DNA from: Dechloromonas sp.
GTDB lineage: Bacteria; Pseudomonadota; Gammaproteobacteria; Burkholderiales; Rhodocyclaceae
DNA: 64,000 nucleotides
NCBI GenBank assembly: GCA_016790965.1
Contig: JAEUNZ010000001.1
Span: forward strand, 27,095 to 91,094
Direction of reading: 5' to 3'
The position numbers were made by a program, and so were the translations under genes. Below are positions 12,806 through 60,215 of this stretch, piece by piece. How positions within the stretch are numbered: the first letter of the stretch is position 1; every line of letters begins with the position of its first letter. The notes under the pieces are model-generated. The model searched no databases. It worked only from the letters and a program-made list of their open reading frames with translations, and was not told the origin of the DNA.

Positions 12806-12813
12806 GCGAGTGT

Positions 12814-13457: not shown

Positions 13458-14150
13458 TTGGCCAACCGTTTGCTCATTGTTGAAGACGATCGCGATCTGG
13501 CGCGCAATCTGATCGAATATCTGGAGCTGCAGGGCTACGTCACCGATTTTGCCGCCGACGGTCAAACCGCGCTCCAACTCGTCGCGGCCGAGCAGTTCGA
13601 TCTGGTGGTATTGGATCTCATGCTACCCGTGATCGACGGGCTTTCGGTCTGCACCAGAATCCGCCAGCAGTTGCACAGCCATGTCCCGGTGGTGATGCTG
13701 ACCGCCAAGGACGAAGTCGATCTCAAGGTTGCGGCCTTGGATATCGGGGCGGACGACTACGTGGTGAAACCTGCTTCGCTACGAGAAATTGAAGCCCGCA
13801 TCCGAGCCCTGATCCGGCGAACGTCGCGGGAGGTCGAGAGTGACGTCTTGATCGTGGATGATCTGCGCTTTGATACGGGAACGATGAAGATCGAGCGCGC
13901 GGGCGTTCCCATTGTCCTTCCGCCCGTGCCGATGCGCATTCTCATGTTGCTGATGAGGCGCTCGCCCAACGTCGTCCATCGCCAGGCCATCCACCGCGAA
14001 ATCTGGGGCGACGAAACGGGGGATGCCCACGCCCTGATCGTCCACATGCATATGTTGCGCAATGCGGTAGACAAGTCGTTCTTCCGGCAGATCATCCACA
14101 CTGTCCGAGGCTTCGGTTACCGGATTGCCTATGAACCCGAAGCCTTATGA
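13458..14150 (+). CDS. OmpR/PhoB-family response regulator
   Basis: TTG start. REC domain (LLIVEDD.., DLVVLDLMLP, LTAKD) plus a winged-helix trans_reg_C domain (..TVRGFGYRI). Confidence 0.9.
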   Translation: MANRLLIVEDDRDLARNLIEYLELQGYVTDFAADGQTALQLVAAEQFDLVVLDLMLPVIDGLSVCTRIRQQLHSHVPVVMLTAKDEVDLKVAALDIGADDYVVKPASLREIEARIRALIRRTSREVESDVLIVDDLRFDTGTMKIERAGVPIVLPPVPMRILMLLMRRSPNVVHRQAIHREIWGDETGDAHALIVHMHMLRNAVDKSFFRQIIHTVRGFGYRIAYEPEAL

Positions 14151-29662: not shown

Positions 29663-31585
29663 TCACGAAGACTTGCGTACCCGCAGATACCACTCGCACA
29701 GCAGGCGCACCTGTTTTTCGGTATAGCCCTTGGTGATCATGCGATTGACGAAATCCTGGTGCTTCTTCTGCTCGTCGGCGCTGGCCTTGGTGTTGAAGGA
29801 GATGACCGGCAGCAACTCCTCGGTGTTGGAAAACATCTTCTTTTCGATCACCGCCCGCAGCTTCTCGTAGCTGGTCCAGGACGGATTCTTGCCGTCGTGC
29901 TTGGCCCGGGCGCGCAGGACGAAATTGACCACCTCGTTGCGGAAGTCCTTGGGATTGCTGATGCCGGCCGGCTTCTCGATTTTCTCCAACTCGTCGTTCA
30001 GGGCCCCCCGGTCGAGGATTTCGCCGGTGTTCGGGTCGCGGAATTCCTGGTCTTGAATCCAGAAGTCGGCGTAGGTGACGTAGCGGTCGAAGATGTTCTG
30101 GCCGTATTCGGAATAACTTTCCAGGTAGGCGGTCTGGATTTCCTTGCCGATGAACTCGGCGTAGCGTGGGGAGAGGTATTCCTTGAGGAAGCGCAGATAG
30201 CGTTCCTCAATCTCGGGCGGGTACTGTTCCTGTTCGATCTGCTGCTCCAGGACGTACATCAGGTGTACCGGATTGGCCGCCACCTCCCGGTGGTCGAAGT
30301 TGAAGACCTTGGAGAGAATCTTGAAGGCGAAGCGGGTGGACAGCCCGGTCATGCCCTCGTCCACCCCGGCGTAGTCGCGGTACTCCTGGTAGCTCTTGGC
30401 CTTGGGGTCGGTGTCCTTGAGATTTTCGCCGTCGTAGACCCGCATTTTGCTGTAGATGGAAGAGTTCTCCGGCTCCTTGAGGCGCGACAGGGCGGCGAAC
30501 TGGGCCATCATGCGTAGAGTGTCCGGCGCGCAGGGGGCCTGGGAAAGCGACGAATTGACCAGCAGCTTTTCGTAGATGTGGATCTCGTCCGACACCCGCA
30601 GGCAGTACGGAACCTTGACGATATAAATGCGGTCGAGGAAAGCCTCGTTGTTGCGGTTGTTCTTGAAAGCCTGCCATTCCGCCTCGTTGGAGTGGGCCAG
30701 CACGAGCCCGTCGAAGGGGATGGCGCCGAAGCCCTCGGTGCCCTTGTAGTTCTGCTCCTGGGTGGCGGTGAGCAGGGGGTGCAGTACCTTGATGGGCGCC
30801 TTGAACATCTCGACGAATTCCAGGATGCCCCGGTTGGCGAGGCACAGGCCGCCGGAGTAGGAATAGGCGTCCGGGTCGTTCTGGGAATAGGTTTCCAGCT
30901 TCCTGATGTCGATCTTGCCCACCAGGCTGGAAATGTCCTGGTTGTTCTCGTCGCCCGGTTCGGTCTTGGAGACGGCGATCTGGGACAGCACCGAGGGGCG
31001 AATCTTCACCACCCGGAACTTGGTGATGTCGCCGCCGAATTCCTGCAGGCGCTTCACCGCCCAGGGGCTCATGATGGTGCCCAGGTAGCGGCGGGGGATG
31101 CCGTAATCCTCTTCCAGGATGGGGCCATCCTCATTGACGTTGAACAGGCCCAGGGGCGATTCATGCACCGGCGAACCCTTGATGGCGTAGAAGGGCACCT
31201 TCTCGATGAGGGCCTTCAGCCGCTCTGCGAGTGAGGACTTACCCCCGCCGACCGGCCCAAGAAGGTAAAGAATCTGCTTCTTCTCCTCCAGGCCCTGGGC
31301 GGCGTGACGGAAGTAGGAAACGATGTTCTCGATCACCTCCTCCATGCCGTAAAACTCGCGGAAGGCGGGATAGAGCTTCATCATCTTGTTGGCGAAGATG
31401 CGCGAGAGCCGAGGTTCCAGCCGTGTATCGAGAAGTTCCGGCTCGCCAATGGCGATGAGCATGCGCTCGGCGACGCTGGCGTAGGCAGTGGGGTCGGTCT
31501 TGCACAGGTCGAGGTATTCCTGGACCGACATTTCTTCCTCTTGCGCGGCTTCGTAGCGGCTCTGGTAGCGGGCGAAGATCGACAT
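29663..31585 (-). CDS. prkA: PrkA/YeaG family serine protein kinase (AAA+-like N-domain)
   Basis: Start at the internal ATG (MSIFARYQSRYE..). Walker A LLGPVGGGKSSL and the PrkA C-terminal kinase-like domain. 640 aa, matching the family size. Confidence 0.92.
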   Translation of the reverse strand: MSIFARYQSRYEAAQEEEMSVQEYLDLCKTDPTAYASVAERMLIAIGEPELLDTRLEPRLSRIFANKMMKLYPAFREFYGMEEVIENIVSYFRHAAQGLEEKKQILYLLGPVGGGKSSLAERLKALIEKVPFYAIKGSPVHESPLGLFNVNEDGPILEEDYGIPRRYLGTIMSPWAVKRLQEFGGDITKFRVVKIRPSVLSQIAVSKTEPGDENNQDISSLVGKIDIRKLETYSQNDPDAYSYSGGLCLANRGILEFVEMFKAPIKVLHPLLTATQEQNYKGTEGFGAIPFDGLVLAHSNEAEWQAFKNNRNNEAFLDRIYIVKVPYCLRVSDEIHIYEKLLVNSSLSQAPCAPDTLRMMAQFAALSRLKEPENSSIYSKMRVYDGENLKDTDPKAKSYQEYRDYAGVDEGMTGLSTRFAFKILSKVFNFDHREVAANPVHLMYVLEQQIEQEQYPPEIEERYLRFLKEYLSPRYAEFIGKEIQTAYLESYSEYGQNIFDRYVTYADFWIQDQEFRDPNTGEILDRGALNDELEKIEKPAGISNPKDFRNEVVNFVLRARAKHDGKNPSWTSYEKLRAVIEKKMFSNTEELLPVISFNTKASADEQKKHQDFVNRMITKGYTEKQVRLLCEWYLRVRKSS

Positions 31586-31656
31586 GCTGGACTCCTTCCT
31601 GGTTGTACCGCCGGCATCCTGCCGTGTGCGGGTTTGAATCCACATTCGTACAACGG

Positions 31657-31693: not shown

Positions 31694-33775
31694 CTACGCC
31701 GCCTGCGGTTGCCTCCCGGCCAAATCCTTCACGGTCTCGGCCAGACGGTCAAGCCCCCAGTCCAGTTCGCCACGGCGGAGGGTGAGCGGTGGCGCCAGGC
31801 GCAATACCGTGCCATGGGTGTCCTTGCTCAGGACGCCGTGTTCCAGGAGGCCCAGGGCCAGACGGCGTGCGTCGAGCCGCTGGGCATCGAGCTCGATGCC
31901 GGCGAACAGTCCTCTGCCTCGCACCGCCACGATGGCGGAACACTCCGCGGCCAGGGCGTTCAGGCGCTCCATCAGAATTTCGCCCAGAGCGGCGGAACGG
32001 GCGACCAGATCCTCGTCCTCCAGCACATCCAGGGCGGCCAGGGCTACGGCGGCGGCCAGCGGGTTGCCGCCGAAGGTCGAGCCGTGGTCGCCGGGTCGGA
32101 AGACGCCCATCACCGCCTCGTCGGCCAGAAAGGCGGAGACCGGCAGCAGGCCGCCGCCCAGGGCCTTGCCCAGGATGAGGCCGTCCGGCCGCACGCCATC
32201 GTGCTGGCAGGCCAGCAAGCGGCCGGTGCGTCCCAGGCCGGTCTGCACCTCGTCGGCGATGAGCAATACCTCGTGGCGGCGGCAGAGCGCCGCGCAGGCG
32301 GCCAGATAGCCCGGGGGCGGAACGACGATGCCGCCCTCGCCCTGGATGGGCTCCACCAGGAAGGCTGCCGTATGGGGCGTGATGGCAGCGGCCAGGGCCG
32401 CCGGATCGCCGTAGGGGATGCGCTTCATCCCGGGAGAGAAGGGGCCGAAGCCGCGGCGGTACTGGGGTTCGGACGACAGGCCCACCGCGGCCAGGGTGCG
32501 GCCGTGGAAATTGCCCTCGCAGGCGATGATTTCGGCCCTGTCCGGTGGGACGCCCTTCACTTCGTAGGCCCACTTGCGGGCGGCCTTGAGGGCCGTTTCC
32601 ACCGCTTCGACGCCTGTGTTCATGGGCAGGGCGCGCTCATAGCCGGTGAGCAGGGTGAGGCGGCGCAGGAAGCGCGGCAGGCGGTCGTTGAAATAGGCTC
32701 GGGAGGTAACCGCCAGACGGCCGGCCTGCTCAGTCAGGGCGGCCAGCAGGCGGGGGTGGGCGTGGCCGAAGCTGGTGGCGGAATAGGCGGACATGAAATC
32801 GAGGTAGCGCCGCCCCTCCACGTCTTCCAGCCAGGCACCCTGGCCCCGGGCCAGGACCACCGGCAGGGGGGCGTAATTGCGGGCGCCGAAGCCCTCCTCC
32901 CAGCGCCGCAGCGTGGCAGCATCGGGGCGGGACACCGCCTCCGCCAGGGCCAGAATGAAGCGGGCCGTGGCACCCTGGGGGTCCAGGGCCGGGTCGAACT
33001 CCACGATCTCCAGGCCGACGCAACTGCGCTCCCGCAGCACGCCGGCCAGGCCGGCCAGCAATTCTTCGGCCGTGATCCCGTGGGGGACCGGCGTCGCAAC
33101 GCCCGGAGCGGCGCCGGGGTCCACGGCATCCACGTCCAGGCTGATGCCCCAGGGGCCGGGGCCCAGTTCGTGGCGCGCTGCGGCGAAGACGGAGGTAAAG
33201 CCTCGCTCCCGCACCTCGGCCATGCAATGGATACGCACGCCCAGGCGGGTGAGCCGCTCCATCTCGGCCGATTCAAAGCTGCGGGCACCGATGACCACCA
33301 CGCGGGACGGGTCCAGGAGGGGGCCGGGAATCGTGGCGAGAGGCGCTTCGCCTTCACCCAGCAAGGCGGCGAGGGGCATGCCGTGGGCGTTGCCGCTGGG
33401 GCTGCTGGCGGGGGTGTGGGCGTCGAGGTGGGCGTCGATCCAGATCAGGCCGGGGGCGGTGCCCAGGGCACGGCCGACGCCCTTCCAGGTGGCGGCGGCG
33501 AGGGAATGGTCGCCCCCCAGAACCAGGGGGCGGTCGGCCCGGGAGACGACCTCGGCGCATCGGCTGGCGAGGCGCTCCAGAATGGCGGCCAGGTCGTCCT
33601 GCCCTGCCAGCGCCAGGGCCTGCCACTCGGCTCCCAGGCCGTTGGCCCGCAGCCGTGCGACGAGACCGGCCCGGCCCAGGGGCGAGTCATCGGCAAGATG
33701 GGGATGGGGACCGCCGAGAAAACTTCCGACCGCGATGCACTGCACCGTCGGGTTCAGGGAGATCAGTTTGCGCAT
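31694..33775 (-). CDS. Bifunctional fusion: arginase-family ureohydrolase (N) + ornithine aminotransferase, class-III PLP (C)
   Basis: The N-terminal ~300 aa carry arginase motifs GGDHSLA, WIDAHLDAHT, SPSGNAHGMPLA and SLDVDAVDP. The C-terminal ~390 aa carry OAT motifs NYAPLPVVL, FMSAYSATSFGHAHP, DEVQTGLGRTG and LGKALGGG. It is a single uninterrupted 693-codon frame. Confidence 0.85.
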   Translation of the reverse strand: MRKLISLNPTVQCIAVGSFLGGPHPHLADDSPLGRAGLVARLRANGLGAEWQALALAGQDDLAAILERLASRCAEVVSRADRPLVLGGDHSLAAATWKGVGRALGTAPGLIWIDAHLDAHTPASSPSGNAHGMPLAALLGEGEAPLATIPGPLLDPSRVVVIGARSFESAEMERLTRLGVRIHCMAEVRERGFTSVFAAARHELGPGPWGISLDVDAVDPGAAPGVATPVPHGITAEELLAGLAGVLRERSCVGLEIVEFDPALDPQGATARFILALAEAVSRPDAATLRRWEEGFGARNYAPLPVVLARGQGAWLEDVEGRRYLDFMSAYSATSFGHAHPRLLAALTEQAGRLAVTSRAYFNDRLPRFLRRLTLLTGYERALPMNTGVEAVETALKAARKWAYEVKGVPPDRAEIIACEGNFHGRTLAAVGLSSEPQYRRGFGPFSPGMKRIPYGDPAALAAAITPHTAAFLVEPIQGEGGIVVPPPGYLAACAALCRRHEVLLIADEVQTGLGRTGRLLACQHDGVRPDGLILGKALGGGLLPVSAFLADEAVMGVFRPGDHGSTFGGNPLAAAVALAALDVLEDEDLVARSAALGEILMERLNALAAECSAIVAVRGRGLFAGIELDAQRLDARRLALGLLEHGVLSKDTHGTVLRLAPPLTLRRGELDWGLDRLAETVKDLAGRQPQAA

Positions 33776-33909
33776 GGGGCGCCTCCTCTCCAGGCCTGGG
33801 GGTCTCTACCAGCTTAGACGAGAGTCGCCGGGGCCGGTTCGGAAGCTTTGCCGGACGGTCGAAATCCGCCCCCGGATGGCGTGCGGTGATCGGGGGGCCG
33901 GCCTCTGGC

Positions 33910-35391
33910 TTACCCCAGCGCTGTCGCAACCGCCCGAAAACTCTCCAGCCCGGCTTCCAGATTTTCGATGATTTCACCGGCCAGTTCATCCGGCTCGGGC
34001 AGGTTATCCAGATCGGCCAGGCTCTTGTCCTTCAACCAGAAAATATCGAGGCTGGTCTTGTCGCGGGCGACGATCTGCTCATGGCTGAACTTGCGCCAGC
34101 GGCCTTCCGGATTGGCTGTCTCGTGCCAGGTTTCGGCGCGCTCGTAGCGGTTCAACGGGTTGTAGCAGGCGACGAAATCCTGCAAGTCCTCGAAGCGCAG
34201 CGGCTTCTTTTTCAGCGTATGGTGGATGTTGGTGCGATAGTCATAGACCCACACCTCCCACGTCCACGCCTCCTTGCGCGCCGGCTGGTTATCGAAGAAC
34301 AGCACGTTCGCCTTGACGCCGTTGGCGTAGAAGATCCCCGTCGGCAGGCGCAGGATGGTGTGCAGATCGGTCGTCTCCAGCAACTTGCGGCGCACCGTCT
34401 CGCCCGCACCGCCCTCGAACAGCACGTTGTCCGGCACCACCACGGCGGCGCGCCCCGTCGTCTTCAGCAGGCTGCGGATATGCTGCACGAAATTGAGCTG
34501 CTTGTTCGAGGTCGTCGCCCAGAAATCCTGGCGGTTGTAGGTCAGGTCATCACGATCCAGCTCGCCGTCCTCATTGGTGAACACCATGCTGCTCTTCTTG
34601 CCGAAGGGCGGGTTGGCCAGCACGTAGTCAAAGCTTTCCTGCGGCGGGGCGATCAGCGCGTCGTTCGGCGAAATCGGACTGTCCCCGTCGATCTCACCAA
34701 TGTTGTGCAGGAACATGTTCATCAAGGCCAGCCGCCGCGTACCGGCGACGATCTCGTTGCCAAAAAAGGTATCGTGCTTGAGGAAAGCCCGCTGCTCGCG
34801 GTCCATGCCGGGGTAGGTGTCGACCAGGAAATCGTAGGCGGCGAGGAAAAAGCCGCCGGTGCCGCAGGCCGGATCGGCAATCGTCTTTCCCGGCAGCGGC
34901 CGCACGCACTCCACCATCGCCCGGATCAGCGGGCGCGGCGTGAAATACTGCCCTGCTCCCGACTTCGTATCCTCGGCGTTACGCTCCAACAAGCCCTCGT
35001 AGATGTCGCCCTTGACGTCCGCCCCCAGCGTCACCCAACTGGTTTCGTCGACCATGTCGATCAACCGTGACAGCTTGGCCGGGTCCTGGATCTTGTTCTG
35101 CGCCTTGGTGAAAATCTGCCCGAGCAGCCCCGGCTTGTTGCCCAGCTCCCGCAGCACCGTCACGTAATGCACTTCCAGCGCCGCCCCGCGCACAGACTTC
35201 AGGCTCGCCCAGCCGAGGTTTTCGGGAATCCCGATCTTGCGGCTGTACGGCGGCCGACCGTACTCGTCGGCCATTTTCAGGAAAATCAGGTAAGTCAGCT
35301 GCTCCAGGTAGTCGCCATAGCCGACGCCGTCATCGCGCAGCGTGGTACAAAAGCTCCAGACACGGGAGACGATGGATGCGGTTGCGTTCAT
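33910..35391 (-). CDS. hsdM: Type I restriction-modification system DNA methyltransferase subunit
   Basis: HsdM_N domain (..YLEQLTYLIFLKMADE..), SAM motif I DPACGTGGF, and catalytic motif IV NPPFG. Confidence 0.92.
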   Translation of the reverse strand: MNATASIVSRVWSFCTTLRDDGVGYGDYLEQLTYLIFLKMADEYGRPPYSRKIGIPENLGWASLKSVRGAALEVHYVTVLRELGNKPGLLGQIFTKAQNKIQDPAKLSRLIDMVDETSWVTLGADVKGDIYEGLLERNAEDTKSGAGQYFTPRPLIRAMVECVRPLPGKTIADPACGTGGFFLAAYDFLVDTYPGMDREQRAFLKHDTFFGNEIVAGTRRLALMNMFLHNIGEIDGDSPISPNDALIAPPQESFDYVLANPPFGKKSSMVFTNEDGELDRDDLTYNRQDFWATTSNKQLNFVQHIRSLLKTTGRAAVVVPDNVLFEGGAGETVRRKLLETTDLHTILRLPTGIFYANGVKANVLFFDNQPARKEAWTWEVWVYDYRTNIHHTLKKKPLRFEDLQDFVACYNPLNRYERAETWHETANPEGRWRKFSHEQIVARDKTSLDIFWLKDKSLADLDNLPEPDELAGEIIENLEAGLESFRAVATALG

Positions 35392-35829
35392 GTTGATGAA
35401 TCTTTCAAATAAATTCGGTGCGGGAGCCCCGGTGGTTTGGCGTCAAACCACCGGGGTTAAACGAGCCTAGGTGCTTAGCTCCGGTGGTATACGGGTCAGC
35501 TCCGGTGATATGACGTTGGCTAAAGCGCATAAATTTATGCGCCTTGGCGTATAGGCGGCGTATAGAATTCTTTATTCTTCAAATAAAACTTTGTTTATTA
35601 GACATTTTTTTGTTGCACCAAACTGGTCGTTATTTATGCGCCGAGGCGCATAGCGTCCGGTTTGCGGCTTCGCTAGGCTTTCAGATTGAAGTCATCGTTA
35701 CCATGCATCGTCAGCCGTGAATCAAGAAATTCAGCGCACACGGAAAATGCACAACAATTGGATTTATTGGACTTTTCCGCCACATAACTTCTCCACCCAG
35801 CGCTGGTGAATCAAAACAGGATCAAGAAA
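35392..35829. repeat. AT-rich, palindrome- and repeat-dense spacer upstream of hsdM
   Basis: Hairpin CCCCGGTGGTTT-N6-AAACCACCGGGG (35427..35456). Direct repeats AGCTCCGGTG(G/A)TAT (35477..35490, 35497..35510). Perfect 18-bp palindromes GCGCATAAATTTATGCGC (35525..35542) and TATGCGCCGAGGCGCATA (35635..35652). No ORF of plausible size. Confidence 0.6.
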
Positions 35830-37284
35830 CTACGCCCACCCGGGAACATACCCGCCTCTCGGGTGCTCAGGATCGGCAATCCTGATCAGATTAGCCTCCA
35901 GCGCCTTGTTGATGACCGTGCTTGCCTGCGCCGCATTCCGGCTGGCAATGCCCAAGCGGGCGCATAAGGTGGCGTTTTTCATCTTGTCGCCGCTGAGAAA
36001 CTTGAACACCGCGTGGAAGTAACAAGCGCGGACGCGCTCGTCGGGTGTCATGTCGGCAAACATGCGCGGTCCATACATAACAACCTGCGTAGCATGGTTT
36101 TCGGCGCGGAACCATGGCGCTGGAAGCTGGTGTAGTTCGACCAACTCAATCACCTTGTCCAGACCGCTCCCCTGTTCCTCACAGAAATTCATCCGCCGCA
36201 TCAAGCTGGCCAGCGCCTCGTTGCGGGAGCGTGGCGGCAAATCCACCATCCGATCGGGTTGAACCAGCGGGATGCCTGGATTGCTGATTTCAATGCGGTC
36301 GCTGAACAATTCGATCAGCGGCCCCGCCCCGGTAATCGTCATGTCCTGGTGAATCATGGCATTGGCGACGAGTTCGCGTATCGCCAACTCGGGAAACATC
36401 GAATGCGATTCCCGTAGCGCAGCCCCGATGTGCTCGTTCTTCGGTTGCAGATCGTTCAGGTAAGCGACCAGCCCCTCGAACCCCACCGCATACCCCTTCT
36501 GTCCATCATGGCGATGCTTGACTGTGGTCGCGCGGGTTTTCCCCTCATAGGCAACAAAGCGAATCGCCTTGCGGGAAATCCCATCGTCGAACTCCGACAA
36601 ACGGTTGGCAAACAGGATGGCGCCCAGATTCGTGATGTTCCACCGCTCGCCGACATCTTTCACTGCCAGCCGGTCCACCACCAGCTTCTCGAAAATTCCC
36701 TGCCGGTTGTCCGGCAGAGGCTGCTTGGTCAGACGGAAATACTGGCTGTAGTCGAGCAGCGCCAGAACATCGTCGCCCGAAACATACTGGCGGGCAATGC
36801 CGCCCTCCCAGCGATAGGGGCGCATGCGATCAATCAGGGCCTGGTAACGCTCGGGATAATCCGTCAGCTTCGGCGTTGCGCTGCCAATGCGGATGTAGGG
36901 CGTTCCATTGAAGCAGACTGGCGCCCCGGTTGCCGCCGGGATTTCCAGCAAAACAACCCGCCCATCGGGATGGCTGACCTCCCGGAAGGCAAAAGCGATG
37001 CTCGGCTGCAAACGTTGCGCCAGCCAGAACTGCAAGGGTTGATTCCCCATTTTTTCCGACTCGGGGTGGAAGCCCGTGCCAATCACGCGATGACTGCCAT
37101 CCTCAATCCCCCAAAGCATGAAGGCCGTCTCCCGCCCCACCATGCGGGCAGCGTTGGAAAGCGCAGAGCAACGCAAGCCGATCATCTCCGGATCGGCATT
37201 GTTCGCCTTGAACTCCAGCCACTCCATTTCGTCGGGCTGAGCGCGGAGTTCATTCACCAGATCAATATCGCGGGCTGCGCTCAT
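35830..37284 (-). CDS. AlbA_2 (Schlafen-like) + HATPase_c_4 + C-terminal wHTH protein embedded in the Type I R-M operon
   Basis: N-terminal ..EMEWLEFKAN.. (AlbA_2 'divergent AAA' signature) and central ..AIRELVANAMIHQDM.. (HATPase_c_4 signature). The C-terminal helix-rich ~80 aa look like a DNA-binding domain. The start overlaps the hsdS stop (ATGA). Confidence 0.7.
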   Translation of the reverse strand: MSAARDIDLVNELRAQPDEMEWLEFKANNADPEMIGLRCSALSNAARMVGRETAFMLWGIEDGSHRVIGTGFHPESEKMGNQPLQFWLAQRLQPSIAFAFREVSHPDGRVVLLEIPAATGAPVCFNGTPYIRIGSATPKLTDYPERYQALIDRMRPYRWEGGIARQYVSGDDVLALLDYSQYFRLTKQPLPDNRQGIFEKLVVDRLAVKDVGERWNITNLGAILFANRLSEFDDGISRKAIRFVAYEGKTRATTVKHRHDGQKGYAVGFEGLVAYLNDLQPKNEHIGAALRESHSMFPELAIRELVANAMIHQDMTITGAGPLIELFSDRIEISNPGIPLVQPDRMVDLPPRSRNEALASLMRRMNFCEEQGSGLDKVIELVELHQLPAPWFRAENHATQVVMYGPRMFADMTPDERVRACYFHAVFKFLSGDKMKNATLCARLGIASRNAAQASTVINKALEANLIRIADPEHPRGGYVPGWA

Positions 37285-38747
37285 TGCGTGGCTCCTACTG
37301 TTGGACGTGTTTTCTTCTTGCCGGGGGGTGCCGACAAACGCTCGGCGCGGATGCGTTCGAGCAGGGTGGTGGCGGGTTCTTCGTTTTTGGCCTGTTTGAC
37401 CAGTTGACCGCAGAAAGCCTTTTTCAGGATGGACTGGCGCAGCGCGTCGGCCTGTTGCAGCGCGGTGGCGAGGGTTTGGTCGAGTTGGTCGGCTTCGGAG
37501 AGTTTTTCGGCAAGCAGTTTTTCTATTTGTTGCTGTTCTTGCTCACTGCAAAGCGGATAAGCAAAACCTTCAACGGACTTGGTGTTGAAGTGAATCAACG
37601 CAACCCCAACCATCTTTTGTTTTACGCGCCCCTGCGTCTGCCAGTTCATGTAGTAGGCCAACAAATGCGAGGAAACATGTCGCGGCGCTTTGACAATAAC
37701 GAGATCAGAGCAATTTGCCTTACCCAAATGCTCGGGGATTACACAAGAAACGCCAATAGAACCTGAGCGAACCACGACCACATCCCCCGCAGACAAGGCG
37801 GACTTGCTCAAGGACTGATGGAATCCTTCTGATATGAACTTTAAGCCTTCGGGATCAAAACGGTTTTCTCGAACATTCTGCGAACGCAGAAATGGCACCC
37901 CCTGTTCGATGTATTCGTCCTTCATTGGGCCTACGTAACCGACCGTTACTCGGTCCACCAACTCACCAACGCGAATCCAGCCCCACCCCGCCGGCAGTTC
38001 AGGCAACTCGGCGAGTTCTTCGGCGGTGAGCGGAGGCAGGGGCTTGGGGGGTTTGGGTTTGGGGCCTGCTTGGCCGGCGGTTTGCCAGTCGGCGAGTTGT
38101 TGCTGGTAGCGGGCCTGGCGTTCGCGGGCGATGCGTTGTTGCAGGGCGACGGCGGTTTCGAGCTGGTCGGCGTGAGCGGCGCGCCAGGCGGCGGTGAGCT
38201 TGCCTTCGAAGGCATTCTTGAGCAGCGACTGGCGATAGACCTTGAGCTGTTCGCGGGCGGTATTCAGGCTGGCCACGCCCTGATCGAGTTCGGAAAACAG
38301 TTCCTCGATCTTGGAGACGATGCGGTGTTGTTCGGCGAGTGGAGGAATCGGCAGCAACGATTTGGCAAGGTGCTGGTAGTGCCGCGCATAGCCGTTGTTT
38401 GGAATCTTGGTAACGAGATAGCGGACAAACTGCTCCAGCAACTTTGGCAAGATACAGGCGCTCGGCTGAAGAACCTTTACGCCATCAGCACCCGGAGCAA
38501 ACGCTGTGTTGACCAATTTCACTACGCGAGTGTGGTCCCCAAATACGATAGCTGGCAGCTCGCAATCAATCACCATCGCAGTGTCATCGGTGTAACCGCC
38601 AACGTAGTCTTGCCCTTGGTCGAACACAGGGAACTTCCCGCTTGGAAGGTAGTTTTTCTGCGGGATTTTCTTGTCGGTAAGGGTAACGTTACGTACAGCT
38701 TCGCTGACTGGCAGCAACACCCATGAGGGAGGAAATTCCTCCATCAC
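37281..38747 (-). CDS. hsdS: Type I restriction-modification specificity subunit
   Basis: Two target-recognition domains, visibly less GC-rich, are separated by a helical central conserved region (PPLAEQHRIVSKIEELFSELD..) with a second conserved helix at the C-terminus (..EQEQQQIEKLLAEKLSEADQL..). The start abuts the hsdR stop (GTGATG). Confidence 0.88.
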   Translation of the reverse strand: MMEEFPPSWVLLPVSEAVRNVTLTDKKIPQKNYLPSGKFPVFDQGQDYVGGYTDDTAMVIDCELPAIVFGDHTRVVKLVNTAFAPGADGVKVLQPSACILPKLLEQFVRYLVTKIPNNGYARHYQHLAKSLLPIPPLAEQHRIVSKIEELFSELDQGVASLNTAREQLKVYRQSLLKNAFEGKLTAAWRAAHADQLETAVALQQRIARERQARYQQQLADWQTAGQAGPKPKPPKPLPPLTAEELAELPELPAGWGWIRVGELVDRVTVGYVGPMKDEYIEQGVPFLRSQNVRENRFDPEGLKFISEGFHQSLSKSALSAGDVVVVRSGSIGVSCVIPEHLGKANCSDLVIVKAPRHVSSHLLAYYMNWQTQGRVKQKMVGVALIHFNTKSVEGFAYPLCSEQEQQQIEKLLAEKLSEADQLDQTLATALQQADALRQSILKKAFCGQLVKQAKNEEPATTLLERIRAERLSAPPGKKKTRPTVGATQ

Positions 38748-41572
38748 GCCACCAACGCCTCATTCAACTCATCCAGCAACAGGTCCATGCCCTCGCCGAA
38801 CAGTTGCCACATTTTCCCCAGCCCGCCCTGGGCGTCGAAGGGGCTGTAGTCGAGGTCGCTGCGCTCGACGTGGCAGGAGTGGGCGATATGGTCGCGGAGC
38901 ATGCGTAGCCAGTTCATCTGTTCTTCGTTGAATTTGTCGGTGCCGCCGGCGTGGTGCTGCATGATCCAGGTCTGGAAGTTCTTGCGCACGGTGTCGGCGA
39001 ACGGGGTGATTTTGGCGTCCAGGCCGCAGACGCGGCGGATCAGGGCGAGCAGCGCGGTCAGTTCCTGTTCCGGCGGGGCGCCATTGTAGCCGTCGAGCTG
39101 GCCGTAGGCTTGCCAGATGCGCAGCGGAGCGAGTTTGGGTTTGTCGGCTTTGAGCTTGTCGAGTACCTGGCGCACCAGCTTCAGCGTGACTTCGCGCCGT
39201 CGCCAGGGTTGGGCGAAGAAGATGGTGAGTGCTTCGATTTCATCCCGGTTGGCGGCCAGCCAGTCGGCGAATTCGCCGGTCAGCGCTTCGGCCTGCGCGG
39301 CGCTGTCCTGGCTCCAGCCGGCGTAGGTGACGCTATCCAGATTGTCGTGGTCGATGGTCTGTTCTTTTTCGCGGCGGATGGTGTCGATCAGTTCGATGAA
39401 TTCGCCGTTGAGCAGCGCCGCGGCTTCGCCAACCAGTTGTTGCTGGGCTTGGTCGCGCAGCGTGTCGCCGGGGTCGTTGCCCGCATTTTGCCCAAAGCGC
39501 AGGCCGGCGAGTTCGAGGGCGCGGGCTTCGATGAGGTCGCCGTCGATGGCGTTGAACAGTTTGCTGACCAGGTGGCTGAGTTCGACGCCGCCGGCCGCTT
39601 CGCGCAGGCGGCGCTGGTCGTCGGCGTCGAGCTGCTTGTTGAGGCGAGCCAGACGGCCGGCCAGCGAGGAGACGCTGTCGGTGTCGGTGGCGCCCATCAG
39701 GATGCCCATGGCGAGGTCTTTGAGCGGCACACCGGGCTTGGTGATCAGTGGCTGGCTGGCGGTCTTCAGCGATTTGGTGACGCCGATGGCGTCGACGATC
39801 ACGTAGTGGGTCTTGGCGGTTTTGGCGCTGGGCGTGACTTTGCGCAGCTCGTCCATGTCCAGCGTGCGGGTGCCGCGGCCTTTCATCTGCTCGAAGTAGT
39901 TGCGGCTTTTGACGTCGCGCATGAAGAGCAGGCATTCGAGCGGTTTCACATCGGTGCCGGTGGCGATCATGTCGACGGTGACGGCGATGCGCGGGTGGTA
40001 TTCGTTGCGGAACTGGGCGAGGACGGATTTGGGGTCTTCGCCTTCCTGCACGCTGCCGTCGGCGAGCTTTTTGTCCTGCGCGGCGCGATAGGTGACTTTC
40101 TTGCAGAAGGCGTTGCCCTCGCCGAATTCCTCGCGCACGGTCTGGATGATGTCGTCGGCGTGGCTGTCGGTCTTGGCGAAGATCAGGGTCTTCGGCACTT
40201 CATCGCGGCCGGGGAAGATGGCCGGCAGATTGTCGCGGAAGGCGCGGATGACAGTGCGGATCTGGTCCGGGTTGACGATGTCGCGGTCGAGTTGTGTGGC
40301 GGTGTAGGCGGCGTCCTCGTCCTGCTGTTCCCAACGCTTTTTGCGGGTCAGGCGCTCGCGCTTTTCGACTTGCTGCTCGGCGGCAATAACGGCGCCTTGC
40401 TGGGTGATGCGGGTGTCGATGAGGTAGATCTCGTTGCCGACGTTGACGCCGTCGGCGACGGCTTTTTCATGGCTGTAGTCGCTGACGACGTTCTTTTTGA
40501 AGTAGCCGTAGGTGCGGTTGTCGGGCGTCGCGGTGAGGCCGATCAGGCTGGCGTCGAAGTAGTCGAGCACCTGTTGCCAGAGGTTGTAGATGCTGCGGTG
40601 GCATTCGTCGATGAAGATGAAATCGAAGAACTCGGGCGGGATTTTGGCGTTGTAGGCGACCGGGGCAGGGGCTTTGGCCAGGGTCAGTTCGGCCGGGTTG
40701 ATTTCTTCGGTGGCTTCGTCGAGTTCCTTGTCCTGCAGCAACGCGTAGAGGCGCTGGATGGTCGAGATGCAGACGTCGGCGCCCTTGTCGACGAAGCTGC
40801 TTTTGAGCCGCTGGACGCTGTAAAGCTCGGTGAATTTGCGGTTATCGTCGATCGGCACGTAGGCCATCATTTCCTGCTCGGCCTGCTCGCCGAGGTTTTT
40901 GGTATCAACCAGGAAGAGCACGCGCTTGGCGTCTGCGTGCTTGAGCAGGCGGTAGATACTGGTGATGGCGGTGTAGGTCTTGCCGGCGCCGGTGGCCATC
41001 TGGATCAGGGCGCGCGGCCGGGCTTCGCGGAAGGATTGTTCGAGGTTGGTGATCGCCGTTTCCTGGCAGTCGCGCAGGCGGAGTTCTTTGGCCGGCTGGT
41101 GCTCCGGGTTGAGCGGCGGCAGTTCGGCGAGGCGTCCGCGCAGGCTGTCGCCTTCGGCCATCCAGTCGCGCAGGGTTTCAGGGCGGTGGAAGCTGAACAC
41201 CTCGCGCGAACGCGGCTTGGGGTCGCGGCCATCGGTGAAGCGGGTGACGATGCCAGTGGCTTCGTAGAGGAAGGGCAGCGGCTGCTGGTTATTGACCCAC
41301 TTGAGTTTGGCGGCTGCGTAGCCTTCAGTTTGCGGCTCGTGGGCAGTCAGGCGCTGGCCTTCTGATTCGCGCTTGGCTTCGATGACGCCGACGGCTTTTT
41401 TGTCGACGAAGAGTACGTAGTCGGCCGGGCCGGCATCGGTTTGCCACTCGCGCACGGCCTGTCCAGCCCCGACGCCGAAATCGATTTTCTTTTGCACCGC
41501 CCAGCCGGCAGCACGCAATTGCGCATCGATGCGGTCGCGGGCTTGTTGCTCGGGATTCTGGTTTTCGCTCAT
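38744..41572 (-). CDS. hsdR: Type I restriction enzyme R subunit (HSDR_N nuclease + SF2 helicase + EcoEI_R_C-like tail)
   Basis: Start at the internal ATG (MSENQNPEQQARDRIDAQL..). Nuclease-like N-domain (ADYVLFVD..VGVIEAKR), helicase motifs I (MATGAGKT), II (DECH) and VI (QMKGRGTR). Confidence 0.92.
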   Translation of the reverse strand: MSENQNPEQQARDRIDAQLRAAGWAVQKKIDFGVGAGQAVREWQTDAGPADYVLFVDKKAVGVIEAKRESEGQRLTAHEPQTEGYAAAKLKWVNNQQPLPFLYEATGIVTRFTDGRDPKPRSREVFSFHRPETLRDWMAEGDSLRGRLAELPPLNPEHQPAKELRLRDCQETAITNLEQSFREARPRALIQMATGAGKTYTAITSIYRLLKHADAKRVLFLVDTKNLGEQAEQEMMAYVPIDDNRKFTELYSVQRLKSSFVDKGADVCISTIQRLYALLQDKELDEATEEINPAELTLAKAPAPVAYNAKIPPEFFDFIFIDECHRSIYNLWQQVLDYFDASLIGLTATPDNRTYGYFKKNVVSDYSHEKAVADGVNVGNEIYLIDTRITQQGAVIAAEQQVEKRERLTRKKRWEQQDEDAAYTATQLDRDIVNPDQIRTVIRAFRDNLPAIFPGRDEVPKTLIFAKTDSHADDIIQTVREEFGEGNAFCKKVTYRAAQDKKLADGSVQEGEDPKSVLAQFRNEYHPRIAVTVDMIATGTDVKPLECLLFMRDVKSRNYFEQMKGRGTRTLDMDELRKVTPSAKTAKTHYVIVDAIGVTKSLKTASQPLITKPGVPLKDLAMGILMGATDTDSVSSLAGRLARLNKQLDADDQRRLREAAGGVELSHLVSKLFNAIDGDLIEARALELAGLRFGQNAGNDPGDTLRDQAQQQLVGEAAALLNGEFIELIDTIRREKEQTIDHDNLDSVTYAGWSQDSAAQAEALTGEFADWLAANRDEIEALTIFFAQPWRRREVTLKLVRQVLDKLKADKPKLAPLRIWQAYGQLDGYNGAPPEQELTALLALIRRVCGLDAKITPFADTVRKNFQTWIMQHHAGGTDKFNEEQMNWLRMLRDHIAHSCHVERSDLDYSPFDAQGGLGKMWQLFGEGMDLLLDELNEALVA

Positions 41573-41704
41573 GGGCGGCGGAGCGCTTATTGGCAATCCG
41601 GCGATGATAGCGGAAGGCGCGACCGGTCTGGATGCCAGGCGAATCTCTCGCTGCCCGGAGGCCACCTTCGGCGCGAATTGTCGGTTACGACGAAACATCA
41701 GGGC

Positions 41705-41728
41705 GCGGATGCTTGTCTCGGCATCCGC
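41705..41728 (-). terminator. Hairpin after the symporter gene
   Basis: GCGGATGC-N8-GCATCCGC is a perfect 8-bp stem 10 nt after the stop at 41738, followed on the minus strand by ..GATGTTTCG. Confidence 0.45.
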
Positions 41729-41737
41729 GAAACCTGG

Positions 41738-43249
41738 CTAGCGCTTGGGATGCTCGTGCAGGGGTTCGGCGTGGTGCGTCTCCGCCGCCGCGCGGTGATG
41801 CAGGGCGGCGTGGAGGTCTTCCTGGGGCGTGGCCCGACCGATCCACTGGGGAAGCAGGGAGCCGAGGAGCATTCCGACGAAGCCTACGGCCAGGCCGATG
41901 AGTTGGGGCGGTACCGGGCTTTCCTCGATCAGGAACTCGACCAGCAACCAGGAACTGAGTCCCCCGACGATGGACGCCAGCGCCCCCTGGGAAGTGGCGC
42001 GCTTCCACAGCGCCCCGGCAAAGAGAGGCACGAAAGCGCCGGCCAGGGTGACCTTGTAGGCGTTTTCCACCATCTTGAAAATGGAGGCGTTGGAGTAGAG
42101 GGCAAAGCCGAGCACGACGCAGGCGAAGCCGACGATGGAAAAACGCATGACCCGCAGGAAAGCCCGGTCGCCCAAGCGCGGGAACATGGGGCGGATGATG
42201 TTCTCGGCGAAGGTGACGGAAGGTGCCAGCAGGGTGGCCGACGAACAGCTCATGATGGCCGAGAGCACGGCGCCGAAGAAGATGACCTGGGCGAAGAGCG
42301 GTGTGTGGTTCAGGACCAGCAGCGGCAACACCTTCTGGAAATCCTCCGGGGCGTCGGAAGCGAGCATCGGCCCATACTGGCCGGGGTCGATGAGGGTTGC
42401 CGAATAGGCGATGAACATGGGCACGAAGCAGAAGCAGAAGTAGATCGATGCTCCCAGGATCGAGCCCCAAATTGCGACCTTGGCGCTCTTGGCCGAAGTG
42501 ATGCGCTGGAAGACGTCCTGCTGCGGGATGGAACCCAGCATCATGGTCACCCAGGCCCCCAGGAAGGTGATCCACAGCCAGGGATCGGGTTCGGGGAAGA
42601 ACTCGAACTTGCCGGCGGCGGCCGCGTGGTCGATGACGACACCGGCGCCGCCGGTCTTGTCGGCCATCACCGTGGCGATGAAGAATAGGCCGCCCATGCT
42701 CACCGCCATCTGCACGAAGTCGAGCACCGCTACCGACAGCATGCCGCCGAAGGTGGTGTAGGTGAGCACCACCGCTGCGCCCAGGACCATGCCCGCCGTC
42801 TGGCTCAGGCCGTCGTTGGTCACCACGTTGAGGATGAGGCCCAGGGCCTTGATCTGGGCGGACACCCAGCCCAGGTAGGAGGCGACGATGCAGAGGGTGG
42901 TGATGACCTCGACCGTGCGGTTGTAGCGCAGGCGGTAGAAGTCGCCCAGGGTGATGATGTTGAGCTTGTAGAGGTAGCGGGAGAAGAAAATGCCGGCGAT
43001 GACGAGGCACATGGAGGAGCCGAAGGGGTCGGCCACCACCCCACCCAGGCCCTCACGTACGAAGGTGGATGAGGCACCGAACACGGCTTCGGCACCGAAC
43101 CAGGTCGCAAACACGGTGGCGGTGACCACCGGTAGCGGCAGGTGTCGGCCCGCGACGGCGAAATCCTTGGTGTTGTGCACCCGGGTGGCGGCAAAGAGGC
43201 CGATGCCGATAGACACCAATAGGTAAAGCGCCACGAACCAGACCAGCAT
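41738..43249 (-). CDS. Sodium:solute symporter family transporter
   Basis: 503 aa, ~13 TM. SSF N-terminal motifs (DFAVAGRHLPLPVVTATVFATWFGAE.., ..TLGDFYRLRY). Confidence 0.88.
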   Translation of the reverse strand: MLVWFVALYLLVSIGIGLFAATRVHNTKDFAVAGRHLPLPVVTATVFATWFGAEAVFGASSTFVREGLGGVVADPFGSSMCLVIAGIFFSRYLYKLNIITLGDFYRLRYNRTVEVITTLCIVASYLGWVSAQIKALGLILNVVTNDGLSQTAGMVLGAAVVLTYTTFGGMLSVAVLDFVQMAVSMGGLFFIATVMADKTGGAGVVIDHAAAAGKFEFFPEPDPWLWITFLGAWVTMMLGSIPQQDVFQRITSAKSAKVAIWGSILGASIYFCFCFVPMFIAYSATLIDPGQYGPMLASDAPEDFQKVLPLLVLNHTPLFAQVIFFGAVLSAIMSCSSATLLAPSVTFAENIIRPMFPRLGDRAFLRVMRFSIVGFACVVLGFALYSNASIFKMVENAYKVTLAGAFVPLFAGALWKRATSQGALASIVGGLSSWLLVEFLIEESPVPPQLIGLAVGFVGMLLGSLLPQWIGRATPQEDLHAALHHRAAAETHHAEPLHEHPKR

Positions 43250-60149: not shown

Positions 60150-60215
60150 CCCTACCGAGGAGCGCTGCAAGGGCGATCGCCCTCAGGCTCGGTTCTAAAC
60201 GGCGCTCATTCGACC
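60150..60215 (+). ncRNA. SAH (S-adenosylhomocysteine) riboswitch
   Basis: The leader of ahcY contains CCGAGGAGCGCUGCAAGGGCGAUCGCCCUCAGGCUCGGUUCUAAACGGCGCUCA. Pairings visible in sequence: CCGAG (60155-59) with CUCGG (60188-92), GAGCGC (60161-66) with GCGCUC (60202-07), and an internal hairpin GGGCG-AU-CGCCC. The conserved AGGCUCGG and AACGGCGCUC blocks match the SAH riboswitch consensus as I remember it, and the ahcY context is canonical. Confidence 0.8.

Follow-up and report, generated by a model that had tools for sequence, protein, structure and literature searches.

The locus studied here raises the question whether a Type I restriction-modification (R-M) system may keep its methyltransferase gene apart from the other subunit genes by design. 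In a stretch of 64,000 nt from Dechloromonas sp. (the window), hsdR, hsdS and a further gene, X, are joined by abutting or overlapping codons, and hsdM comes only behind a gap. An earlier interpretation made from the letters alone, the sequence-only reading, had seen in this an inverted operon logic with hsdM split off, implying a different solution to establishment and restriction alleviation.

All four open reading frames are on the minus strand, at positions 38744..41698, 37281..38747, 35830..37284 and 33910..35391; together with the R/S and S/X junctions and the gap of 438 bp they were confirmed from the ORFs and by direct reading. For hsdR the best start is the ATG at 41572, in agreement with the N-termini of homologues (Table 1). 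HsdR shows the Pfam domains HSDR_N, ResIII, SWI2_SNF2 and EcoEI_R_C, scores 370 bits against NCBIfam PRK11448 and carries in its translation the motifs D51..E65-x-K67, GAGKT and DECH. HsdS is matched by Pfam Methylase_S and NCBIfam PRK09737. HsdM consists of HsdM_N and N6_Mtase (Pfam), the motifs DPACGTGGF and NPPFG are seen in the alignment, and the protein matches PDB 2okc (deposited as 'StySJI M protein') with E = 1e-132. Because of these gene identities and the intact catalytic motifs, the locus is predicted to be a complete, intact Type I R-M system plus one extra gene; in this the profile matches support what had been proposed before. At the hsdR/hsdS junction, read as gtgGCGTGATGGAGG, the last base of the hsdR TGA is also the first base of the hsdS start codon, the ATG at 38744 (TGATG); if the GTG at 38747 were the hsdS start, the overlap would be 4 nt. 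At the hsdS/X junction, read as AGGAGccacgcaATGA, the ATG of X overlaps the TGA of hsdS (ATGA), and an AGGAG Shine-Dalgarno sequence lies upstream of it. Overlaps of stop and start codons of this kind are ordinary in bacterial operons and statistically unremarkable.

Table 1. Positions in the window of the inserted island and its parts.
Feature	Position	Strand	Description
Whole inserted island	33909..41739	minus	7,831 bp; from blastn against an empty-site contig
Island-borne leader of hsdR	41573..41739	minus	upstream of hsdR
hsdR	38744..41572	minus	942 aa; restriction/translocase subunit, intact
hsdS	37281..38744	minus	487 aa; specificity subunit, two variable target-recognition domains
X	35830..37284	minus	484 aa; start overlaps hsdS stop
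Non-coding spacer	35392..35829	minus	438 bp; composite
X 3' box 1	35810..35829	minus	TTTCTTGATCCTGTTTTGAT; directly after X stop codon
X 3' box 2	35715..35729	minus	TTTCTTGATTCACGG; 100 nt after box 1; repeat family D2
Palindrome A	35635..35652	none	TATGCGCC-NN-GGCGCATA; conserved in L112, L100, L113
Palindrome B	35525..35553	none	TATACGCCAAGGCGCATA overlapping GGCGCATAAATTTATGCGC
Three 19-nt direct repeats	35425-35443, 35477-35495, 35498-35516	none	families D1, I4
hsdM	33910..35391	minus	493 aa; N6-adenine methyltransferase

The borders of the locus could be defined by comparing the arginase-OAT/SSS junction in relatives, as had been suggested. By blastn, contig L089 continues from one flank to the other (5554-9814 corresponds to window 46000-41740 and 9868-14775 to window 33908-29001), the island replacing 53 bp of the intergenic region between the SSS transporter gene and the arginase/aminotransferase fusion gene. 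A second contig, L092, also has the empty site. Both are strain-level contigs, found alongside several occupied ones from the same population. These two empty sites prove that the locus is a horizontally acquired island. Its right border is ambiguous within 33905..33909, and the hsdM stop codon lies 0–5 nt from it. The earlier description of an island between unrelated genes, with neither integrase nor tRNA gene, was borne out: Pfam and NCBIfam confirmed the identity of both flanking genes, no tRNA gene was found across the whole window, and the scanned neighbouring genes hold no integrase-type domain. The claim that flanking direct repeats are absent stands for anything longer than 6 bp; the sole terminal repeat is AGCCAG, present at both ends, and this could be due to chance.

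To survey gene order in related systems, the four proteins of the window were searched by tblastn against 80 genome loci, which come from bacteria of many phyla and two archaea. As these loci were picked by HsdM similarity (72–93% identity), the set describes this lineage and not Type I systems generally. Upstream flanks of 7 kb or more are available for 57 loci. In 50 of these both hsdR and hsdS precede hsdM in the same orientation, and in two further hsdS alone does so; the remaining five have no R and S within 10 kb. No locus of the survey has R or S behind hsdM or in the opposite orientation. R directly adjoins or overlaps S in 34 of 56 loci, and the cargo between hsdS and hsdM varies from 0 to 6.8 kb. 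From the upstream co-directional ORF to the hsdM start the median distance is 1 nt (77 loci); this ORF overlaps hsdM in 37 of the 77 and is closer than 20 nt in 53, and only in two is a distance of 300 nt reached. The order R-S-(cargo)-M is thus the norm among homologues and appears as the usual arrangement in a lineage of very wide distribution, which speaks against an inverted logic in the coupling of R, S and X. Likewise, the view of hsdM as split off by design could not be upheld, since in this lineage the gene is normally coupled to the one upstream of it.

Of 150 ORFs in the cargo slots, 141 are co-oriented. Their Pfam domains are SLFN_AlbA_2 (14), HATPase_c_4 (12), Fic-like_C (7), AAA_21/AAA_15 (7), PIN (5), PDDEXK_3 (4) and GmrSD (4), besides DarT/Macro, RhuM and others. 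The closest relatives, with HsdM 95% identical, hold different cargo from that of the window: VapBC-like genes, BrnTA and another Schlatpase (see below) in L083, YhcG in L086. R and M show 88–92% nucleotide identity to relatives. Within HsdS the match is confined to the conserved central and C-terminal parts (91–97% nucleotide identity), the recognition domains being, like the cargo, unrelated to theirs, so that the island has a mosaic structure.

X comprises a Schlafen (AlbA_2) domain (Pfam SLFN_AlbA_2), a GHKL-type ATPase (HATPase_c_4) and, at the C-terminus, a region resembling a winged HTH. Judged by its domains it is a Schlafen(AlbA_2)-GHKL ATPase-HTH protein, predicted as a 'Schlatpase', the commonest cargo in the lineage of this HsdM. 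In an alignment of 15 sequences the residues E19, E24, N44, G59, E304, N308, H312, N355 and G374 are invariant and K26 is nearly so. The spacing E19-x4-E24-x-K26 equals that of the Schlafen tRNase triad of Cash, E17-D22-K24 (PMC13462974). Homologues 76–78% identical to X are found in an Aeromonas system of the order hsdM-hsdS-X-(237 nt)-hsdR and also solo, either between the housekeeping genes rph and rdgB or next to a tRNA gene. The ATGA overlap of X on hsdS recurs in three Type I lineages (window, L024 and Aeromonas); in some other loci X follows hsdR instead.

The spacer between X and hsdM has a GC content of 0.461, lower than that of the island (0.598) and that of the flanks (0.646). It contains no credible ORF and gave no Rfam match. 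Consensus scans, covering sigma-70-type promoters and canonical terminators only, found no promoter match and no convincing terminator in it; one weak terminator-like match (35752-35734) was no better than in shuffled sequences. The spacer is composite, with a conserved 3' module belonging to X and with blocks of palindromes and repeats that related loci share. It is 80% identical to L112 (7849-8217), 67% identical to L100 and also alignable with L113 and L116. In Aeromonas and solo contexts alike, X is followed by a non-coding module of two TTTCTTGAT..GTTTTGAT boxes: all homologues at 76–78% identity have these TTTCTTGATYNNGTTTTGAT boxes in two copies, and their distance is exactly 99 nt in L129-L135, that is, in three independent contexts. 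In the window the second half of box 2 is degenerate; in Bacteroidota the boxes are recognisable as TTATTTGATGGYTATTTGAT. A search of 1.9 Mb of loci with the motif as a regular expression returned 22 matches, 17 of them at most 150 nt downstream of an X gene of the window clade. Four further matches lie in loci lacking an intact X of this clade, three of which keep the 3' end of X, and one is unrelated. To the extent that the Schlatpase, SLFN-pAgo and Cash literature was accessible, it holds no mention of this module.

In the distal part, the 19-mer of palindrome B, GGCGCATAAATTTAYGCGC, is carried by ~15 metagenome loci of the lineage; in the majority of them it precedes the hsdM ATG by about 70 nt, often right behind the stop codon of another Schlatpase gene. 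The 19-nt direct repeat occurs as a single copy in L112 and in an amplified version in L116; in the window an inverted copy gives rise to a perfect 13-bp hairpin (35427-35456). Since the conserved box module follows X in every insertion context, the spacer is best read as part of the X cassette, coming with the inserted cargo gene, and not as a device of the R-M system. The first ~120 nt would be the 3' module accompanying X wherever it is inserted, and the rest palindrome and repeat sequence common to related loci, several of which keep no more than a remnant of such a cargo gene. The non-coding conservation in several loci (80% with L112) and a fold more stable than that of shuffled sequences (z = -3.75) leave room for a role of the spacer itself, as promoter, operator, attenuator or small RNA.

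How, then, should the separation of hsdM be explained? That R, S and X were brought together and M set apart as an adaptation for establishment or restriction alleviation unlike that of classical Type I systems appears extremely improbable. The order does differ from that of EcoKI (hsdR, a gap of 200 bp, then overlapping hsdM-hsdS), a spacer does precede hsdM, and little is known of Type I transcription in general (PMC12707154). However, the order is found lineage-wide, and because hsdM normally overlaps its upstream gene there, its separate position in the window would be an exception caused by the cargo. Moreover, the unit of X plus spacer precedes hsdR in the Aeromonas M-S-X-R system. HsdR is inert without M2S1, and the known control at establishment is post-translational, by ClpXP for types IA and IB and by assembly for type IC (PMC12707154); for this reason gene order alone does not imply a different mechanism of establishment.

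Two other explanations concern X itself. The spacer may bring along an internal promoter, operators or both. The operators would be either the TTTCTTGAT..GTTTTGAT boxes or the GCGCATA palindromes, and the HTH of X would bind them and so control the hsdM downstream. We regard this as unlikely, although the boxes and their exact spacing are kept in three unrelated insertion contexts and remain recognisable in Bacteroidota, palindrome B mostly keeps its place before hsdM, and X, labelled by some sources 'predicted HTH transcriptional regulator', is always co-oriented with the next gene, with a gap of ~200 nt or more when co-oriented. Against this, no sigma-70-like promoter was seen in the window spacer or in the modules of L129 and L134, only one half of box 2 is intact in the window, and the gene that the module of Malikia leads into is convergent, so that there the module cannot serve a downstream gene. 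Still less probable is that X acts as a guard in the manner of PrrC, a Schlafen RNase that the Type I complex keeps latent until phage anti-restriction frees it, leading to abortive infection, the tight coupling of hsdS and X then reflecting co-assembly. The triad spacing, the GHKL ATP-binding residues and the recurrent ATGA overlap would fit, PrrC in EcoprrI is a precedent (PMC3874165), and PMC13462974 reports RM-associated Schlafen-ATPase clusters, describing their activation mechanism as unknown. Yet near-identical X genes stand alone, far from any hsd gene (L132, L134), X lies behind hsdR instead of hsdS in other loci, and it has neither homology to PrrC nor a match to any PADLOC model.

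The best reading, and to us a quite probable one, is that of an intact Type I island, acquired horizontally, with the order standard in its lineage and with cargo in the S-M slot. The lineage is cosmopolitan and only a distant relative of the EcoKI (type IA) family; its standard operon would be hsdR, hsdS and hsdM in this order, overlapping or abutting, with the R-S and S-M junctions serving as slots for same-orientation accessory defence or toxin-antitoxin genes; here the S-M slot would hold X, translationally coupled to hsdS. The subunits are expected to assemble as R2M2S1. This complex should methylate adenine in a bipartite target, which the two HsdS recognition domains define, and restrict unmethylated DNA by way of ATP-driven translocation. 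Not gene order but the inactivity of HsdR in the absence of M2S, together with post-translational control like that of the known Type I families, would most likely provide self-protection at establishment. The transcript most likely begins in the leader of hsdR and would extend through the spacer into hsdM, with a weak internal start in the spacer possible. The sigma-70 consensus found no match in the leader, which has an 8-bp hairpin (41705..41728) directly past the SSS stop codon. Its block TCCGCTATCATC (41603..41614) may serve the operon promoter as -10 region; L112, L086 and L083 have this block conserved in the corresponding place, and L084 has it nearly conserved.

With EcoKI (Type IA, E. 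coli K-12) the system shares the three-subunit architecture and, as its best NCBIfam models, those of the EcoKI type. HsdM is 41% identical over the full length, HsdR 26% over EcoKI residues 242-1165 and the conserved helices of HsdS 39%, identities far under within-family levels, with scores under the equivalog cut-offs. In contrast to the window, EcoKI has the order hsdR / hsdM-hsdS with two promoters, and its HsdR carries an N-terminal extension of ~240 aa that the window protein lacks; the latter has an EcoEI_R_C domain. This C-terminal domain is a feature in common with EcoAI/EcoEI (Type IB), whose gene order is R-M-S; the match to the NCBIfam EcoAI model is partial, reaching 185 bits against a cut-off of 550 and covering the N-terminal 60% only. 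X shares with prokaryotic Schlafen-ATPase proteins the pair AlbA_2 (PF04326) and GHKL (PF13749) followed by a short HTH, the majority architecture according to the SLFN-pAgo preprint; it differs from this group, SLFN-pAgo and Cash included, in having no Argonaute, Csx15 or NACHT sensor domain. An accessory gene for defence or a toxin inside the hsd operon in the same orientation is known from EcoprrI-PrrC (PMC3874165), from T1RM-TgvAB of V. cholerae VPI-2 (PMC11411939) and from the EPEC RRDM with DarTG2 (PMC12255303). In all three the cargo lies between hsdS and hsdR. EcoprrI is furthermore a conventional Type IC system (PMC3874165), and the EPEC island has hsdM first (PMC12255303). The window operon has hsdR first and hsdM last, and its cargo is a predicted Schlatpase. 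DarT/Macro and GmrSD are also among the cargo of the window lineage.

The sequence-only reading had taken the order hsdR-hsdS-X-hsdM, in which X codes for a Schlafen-ATPase, as an inversion of the usual logic of Type I restriction-modification (R-M) operons. A survey of homologs does not bear this out. HsdM of the window has thousands of close relatives, 85–95% identical in Rhodocyclales-like bacteria. Scanning one genome per species yielded 80 loci with an HsdM 72–93% identical, spanning Proteobacteria, Bacteroidota, Spirochaetota, Verrucomicrobiota, Cyanobacteria, Firmicutes, Nitrospirota and even archaea, against which HsdR, HsdS, X and HsdM of the window were searched by tblastn. The lineage was defined operationally by an HsdM at least about 72% identical and by an hsdM gene that hsdR and hsdS precede in the same orientation; the window has both. 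Upstream sequence extends over 7 kb or more in 57 loci; 50 of these show hsdR, hsdS and hsdM in this order on one strand and two more have hsdS alone upstream of hsdM. Not in a single one of the 80 loci did tblastn place hsdR or hsdS downstream of hsdM or in inverted orientation. Five exceptions lack hsdR and hsdS within 10 kb. In three of these a cargo-type gene abuts hsdM (for a Schlatpase, the protein group of X, for an AAA_14/DUF4143 protein and for AbiEii), the fourth is close to a YhgA-like transposase gene, and the adjoining ORFs of the fifth are without a Pfam match. The two closest loci from an exact protein look-up (HsdM 95% identical) are likewise R-first and M-last. R-S-(cargo)-M is thus the norm among the homologs, an outcome which the sequence-only reading had itself named as refuting it. 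The R-M island of the window is an ordinary Type I one that harbours an accessory gene and keeps the order standard for its lineage.

The genes of this lineage are also closely spaced. In 77 loci, the nearest co-directional ORF upstream stops at a median distance of 1 nt from the hsdM start; the two overlap in 37 loci (mostly by the 4-nt ATGA type), are less than 20 nt apart in 53 and at least 300 nt apart in only two. Fewer than 100 bp separate hsdS itself from hsdM in 14 of 67 loci, where the two mostly abut or overlap, and hsdR and hsdS abut or overlap in 34 of 56. These spacings indicate that the basic unit is a tightly packed hsdR-hsdS-hsdM operon. The 438-bp AT-rich gap described before hsdM does exist (GC 0.461; the island has 0.598 and the flanks have 0.646) but is the extreme of this distribution, hsdM being normally coupled.

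The HsdM protein is 72–80% identical among Betaproteobacteria, Bacteroidota, Spirochaetota, Cyanobacteria, Firmicutes and archaeal MAGs (Methanosarcina, Woesearchaeota), which points to a single Type I lineage having spread horizontally very widely and in recent times. What can be counted is a widespread lineage, HsdM 72–95% identical in many bacterial phyla and some archaea, that is hsdR-first, hsdM-last and tightly coupled; therefore, the textbook arrangement with modification genes first or separate is not general. The R-S-M order is plain in routine genome annotation. A published explicit account of it for this lineage was not found in the literature searched, an absence that does not amount to novelty. 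Several possible precedents were set aside: the streptococcal label 'hsdRSM' names the cluster, and the text available to us did not settle the order of transcription; the staphylococcal hsdRSMS is a different system; and EPEC RRDM and the Zymomonas plasmid system differ in gene order. The accessible text of a V. cholerae paper (PMC11411939) does not state the gene order. The E. coli genomes gave no close relative, only an EcoKI-type hsdM with about 75% identity over 160 nt. Plasmid matches are hsdS-hsdM pairs or lone hsdM genes: the gene tables of Vibrio campbellii plasmid pVCGX3 and a Methylomonas plasmid show hsdS-hsdM without hsdR, or a lone hsdM preceded by vapC. These copies would be orphan methyltransferases, with the reservation that the tables are incomplete and an hsdR pseudogene may be present.

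ORF calling recovers all four minus-strand genes as they had been described (see table), and both junctions are as reported: the A of the hsdR TGA doubles as that of the hsdS ATG (..GTGGCGTGATGGAGG..), and the ATG of X overlaps the hsdS TGA (AGGAGccacgcaATGA). The best start of hsdR is the ATG at 41572, its residue 1 being where homologs begin to align. The subunit genes are intact. In HsdR the PD-(D/E)xK nuclease residues (D51..E65-A-K67) and the SF2 helicase motifs MATGAGKT, DECH and LTATP are preserved; HsdM has the SAM-binding motif DPACGTGGF and the catalytic motif NPPFG, both in alignment with EcoKI M and PDB 2okc. HsdS consists of two repeated halves aligning with EcoKI HsdS; relatives match only its central and C-terminal conserved blocks (91–97% identical), and its two target-recognition domains are unlike theirs. 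Judged by these features, the products qualify as Type I HsdR, HsdM and HsdS.

Features of the island and its surroundings, in window positions unless a locus is named
Feature	Position	Strand	Remarks
Island	33909..41739		
hsdR	38744..41572	-	Pfam HSDR_N, ResIII, SWI2_SNF2, EcoEI_R_C; EcoKI-type model PRK11448, 370 bits
hsdS	37281..38744	-	Methylase_S (Pfam), PRK09737 (NCBIfam)
X	35830..37284	-	SLFN_AlbA_2, HATPase_c_4 (Pfam)
hsdM	33910..35391	-	HsdM_N, N6_Mtase (Pfam)
Spacer	35392..35829		between X and hsdM
Two-box element	35715..35829		also at X-homolog loci L129 9499-9617, L134 9466-9584, L132 6743-6861 (three independent genomic contexts)
Box 1	35810..35829		3' of X stop
Box 2	35715..35729		second half degenerate
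18-nt match, spacer copy	35681..35698	-	ACGATGACTTCAATCTGA
18-nt match, distant copy	1388..1405	+	5' end of a coding region
SSS 3' end	41740..41940		200 bp beside left border
Arginase-OAT gene	31694..33775	-	693 aa
prkA	29663..31645	-	
SAH riboswitch	60151..60214	+	Rfam RF01057, 60.5 bits

EcoKI is the nearest characterised system (HsdM 41%, HsdR 26% and HsdS helices 39% identity), yet it is organised as hsdR / hsdM-hsdS, in contrast to R-S-X-M here. The low HsdM and HsdR identities, NCBIfam scores below the cut-offs and the different order set the system apart from Type IA (EcoKI). Type IB (EcoAI/EcoEI) does not fit either, as the score for the EcoAI-type HsdR equivalog NF046051 is 185 bits, where the cut-off is 550, and only the EcoEI_R_C domain is common. 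The system is therefore of Type I but belongs to neither of the named families IA and IB. The subunits would assemble as R2M2S1, with a bipartite m6A target that the two HsdS recognition domains determine, and transcription would run from the hsdR leader through to hsdM. During establishment the host would be protected because HsdR is inert without M2S, together with post-translational control, which is known to act on restriction at establishment in types IA, IB and IC (PMC12707154). The further idea that a reversed coupling implies another solution to establishment loses its ground, since the order is the lineage norm and hsdM is normally coupled.

The island is an insertion. The exact arginase-OAT protein is found on contigs with and on contigs without the island, and on two empty-site contigs (L089, L092) its gene directly follows the SSS transporter gene. 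Comparing this junction in relatives, as had been proposed, defined an island of 7,831 bp that replaced 53 bp; it starts inside the SSS stop codon (TGA to TAG) and ends 0–5 nt past the hsdM TAA. As stated before, there is no tRNA in the window, and neither the island nor the scanned neighbouring genes hold a recombinase domain (Pfam, NCBIfam). The reported lack of flanking direct repeats stands in so far as the 53 bp were replaced and not duplicated, but a 6-bp AGCCAG occurs at both ends, which is weak evidence. With no recombinase, tRNA or duplication, integrase-mediated insertion was rejected. The SSS 3' end beside the left border is 91.5% identical to the empty-site allele, the next 1.4 kb of SSS are at least 99% and the right flank at least 99.5% identical; the diverged tract next to nearly identical SSS sequence suggests that a piece of donor flank was co-imported by homologous recombination. 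The leader before hsdR is island-borne and 167 nt long. About 30 nt before the hsdR ATG it holds a block, TCCGCTATCATC, which is conserved in relatives at unrelated sites and is a candidate -10 region. As to the neighbourhood, an arginase-family domain and an ornithine aminotransferase are fused in one protein, and prkA comes after this gene; on L089, DUF444 and SpoVR genes follow prkA, and the SSS transporter is located just upstream in the empty-site allele.

Cargo genes embedded in Type I operons are already known, namely PrrC in EcoprrI (PMC3874165), DarTG2 in EPEC (PMC12255303) and TgvAB in V. cholerae (PMC11411939). In the present lineage the slot between hsdS and hsdM exceeds 500 bp in 50 of 67 loci, and the R-S slot is filled less often. 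Nearly all ORFs called in the slots are co-oriented (141 of 150). Their Pfam domains include SLFN_AlbA_2 (14), HATPase_c_4 (12), Fic-like_C (7), AAA_21/AAA_15 (7), PIN (5), PDDEXK_3 (4) and GmrSD (4), besides DarT/Macro, RhuM, IS200 and others, and Septu-, PARIS- and Gabija-type ATPase models of PADLOC match as well. The S-M and R-S junctions are slots rich in accessory defence genes, and mining them might be worthwhile. Assemblies from related samples (L083 compared to L084/L085) share one R-(VapBC-like)-S-BrnTA-Schlatpase-M island with identical right flanks and different left flanks (ABC transporter genes versus rsmI), which may reflect a rearrangement or a mis-assembly at hsdR.

X is such a cargo. 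With PF04326 (E = 1.1e-11) and PF13749 (E = 9.7e-22) it carries the defining domain pair of the Schlafen(AlbA_2)-GHKL ATPases and belongs to this group, whose name 'Schlatpase' and definition are recent; most members have only a short C-terminal HTH (bioRxiv 10.64898/2026.05.29.728809). Schlafen-ATPase proteins are on record as tightly tied to R-M systems with an unknown activation mechanism (PMC13462974). In an alignment of 15 sequences E19, E24, N44, G59, E304, N308, H312, N355 and G374 are invariant and K26 nearly so; as far as sequence can tell, X thus retains both the acidic/lysine triad of Schlafen proteins (E19, E24, K26) and GHKL ATP-binding residues (E304, N308, G374). The spacing E19-x4-E24-x-K26 equals that of the Cash catalytic triad E17-D22-K24, which makes a nuclease role of X plausible. 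No PADLOC model matched X. Relatives number about 8,000 at E ≤ 1e-40, many of them 74–79% identical. The Aeromonas homolog (76% identical) belongs to a canonically ordered Type I system, hsdM-hsdS-X-(237 nt)-hsdR, where its start overlaps hsdS as ATGA like that of X in the window. Solo homologs amid housekeeping genes occur in Malikia and on a JGI metagenome contig. The Malikia gene is located about 500 nt downstream of an apparent tRNA gene (GGCCCGGTAGCTCAGTTGG...; L132 4690-4770), with hsdM-like pseudogene fragments in between, which hints at a decayed island.

In the Aeromonas, Malikia and JGI homologs the sequence TTTCTTGATYNNGTTTTGAT follows within 7–47 nt of the X stop, and another copy stands exactly 99 nt further on. 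Searched as a regular expression, the box gave 22 matches in 1.9 Mb of fetched DNA: 17 on the same strand within 150 nt downstream of an X gene of the window clade, four in related loci without an intact one, and one unrelated. Three of those four loci (L100, L112, L113) retain the 3' end of X, L112 still ending in NVPGWA and a stop. More distant homologs from Bacteroidota and Opitutaceae (36–45% identical) have a variant box, TTATTTGATGGYTATTTGAT, in two or more copies, and 200–700 nt of non-coding DNA precede the next hsd gene. One could imagine X and its 3' module as a self-contained mobile cassette that inserts into operons and controls the next gene, which would be hsdM here, hsdR in Aeromonas, hsdS in Bacteroidota and rdgB in a solo insertion. 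The module would comprise two TTTCTTGATYNNGTTTTGAT boxes, which the closest homologs have at a spacing of exactly 99 nt, and in this locus also the palindromes that come after the boxes. We consider such a cassette improbable; if it existed, a Schlafen-type sensor would govern methylase expression here. The 3' cis element of this RM-associated Schlafen-ATPase gene is strongly conserved and might help to explain regulation or mobilisation of these uncharacterised proteins. Of the island's features, it is this box module that may deserve separate follow-up.

Judged from its sequence, the spacer most likely combines the conserved 3' module of X with remains of cargo turnover. Beyond the boxes, a core of 31% GC is framed by two palindromes, TATGCGCC-NN-GGCGCATA, at a distance of 99 nt, and there are three 19-nt direct repeats with an inverted copy forming a 13-bp hairpin; this part is shared with L112 (80% identity), L100, L113 and L116. 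Approximately 15 metagenome loci of the lineage carry the 19-mer GGCGCATAAATTTAYGCGC; in most of them it stands about 70 nt ahead of the ATG of hsdM, and often it comes directly past the stop codon of another Schlatpase gene. About half of its 32 metagenome matches are unrelated hairpins in other contexts, presumably the chance level for a 19-mer in such a collection by our own, uncomputed estimate, and only the hsdM-linked half is meaningful. That the spacer is a decayed second Schlatpase gene was considered and set aside, blastx giving no significant match; the sequence before palindrome A reads FNLKA and a stop, resembling the FYVKA end of a remnant in locus L002, which is suggestive only. 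No sigma-70 promoter consensus was present in the island or in the X 3' modules of L129 and L134, and terminator-like matches, absent from the latter two, are no more frequent in the island than in shuffles; these scans neither show nor exclude a promoter of hsdM. The gap held no credible small ORF, no match of the tandem-repeat finder and, at an E-value threshold, no Rfam family. It folds more stably than shuffles (z = -3.75), and the covariation that RNAalifold detects among four spacer homologs is weak (-2.4 kcal/mol), which is not evidence for a structured RNA. With the window scanned at the gathering threshold, the sole Rfam match found was the SAH riboswitch. Finally, an exact 18-nt match connects the spacer with a coding region at a distance of 34 kb, at the 5' end of the latter, which exceeds chance (blastn E = 0.002).
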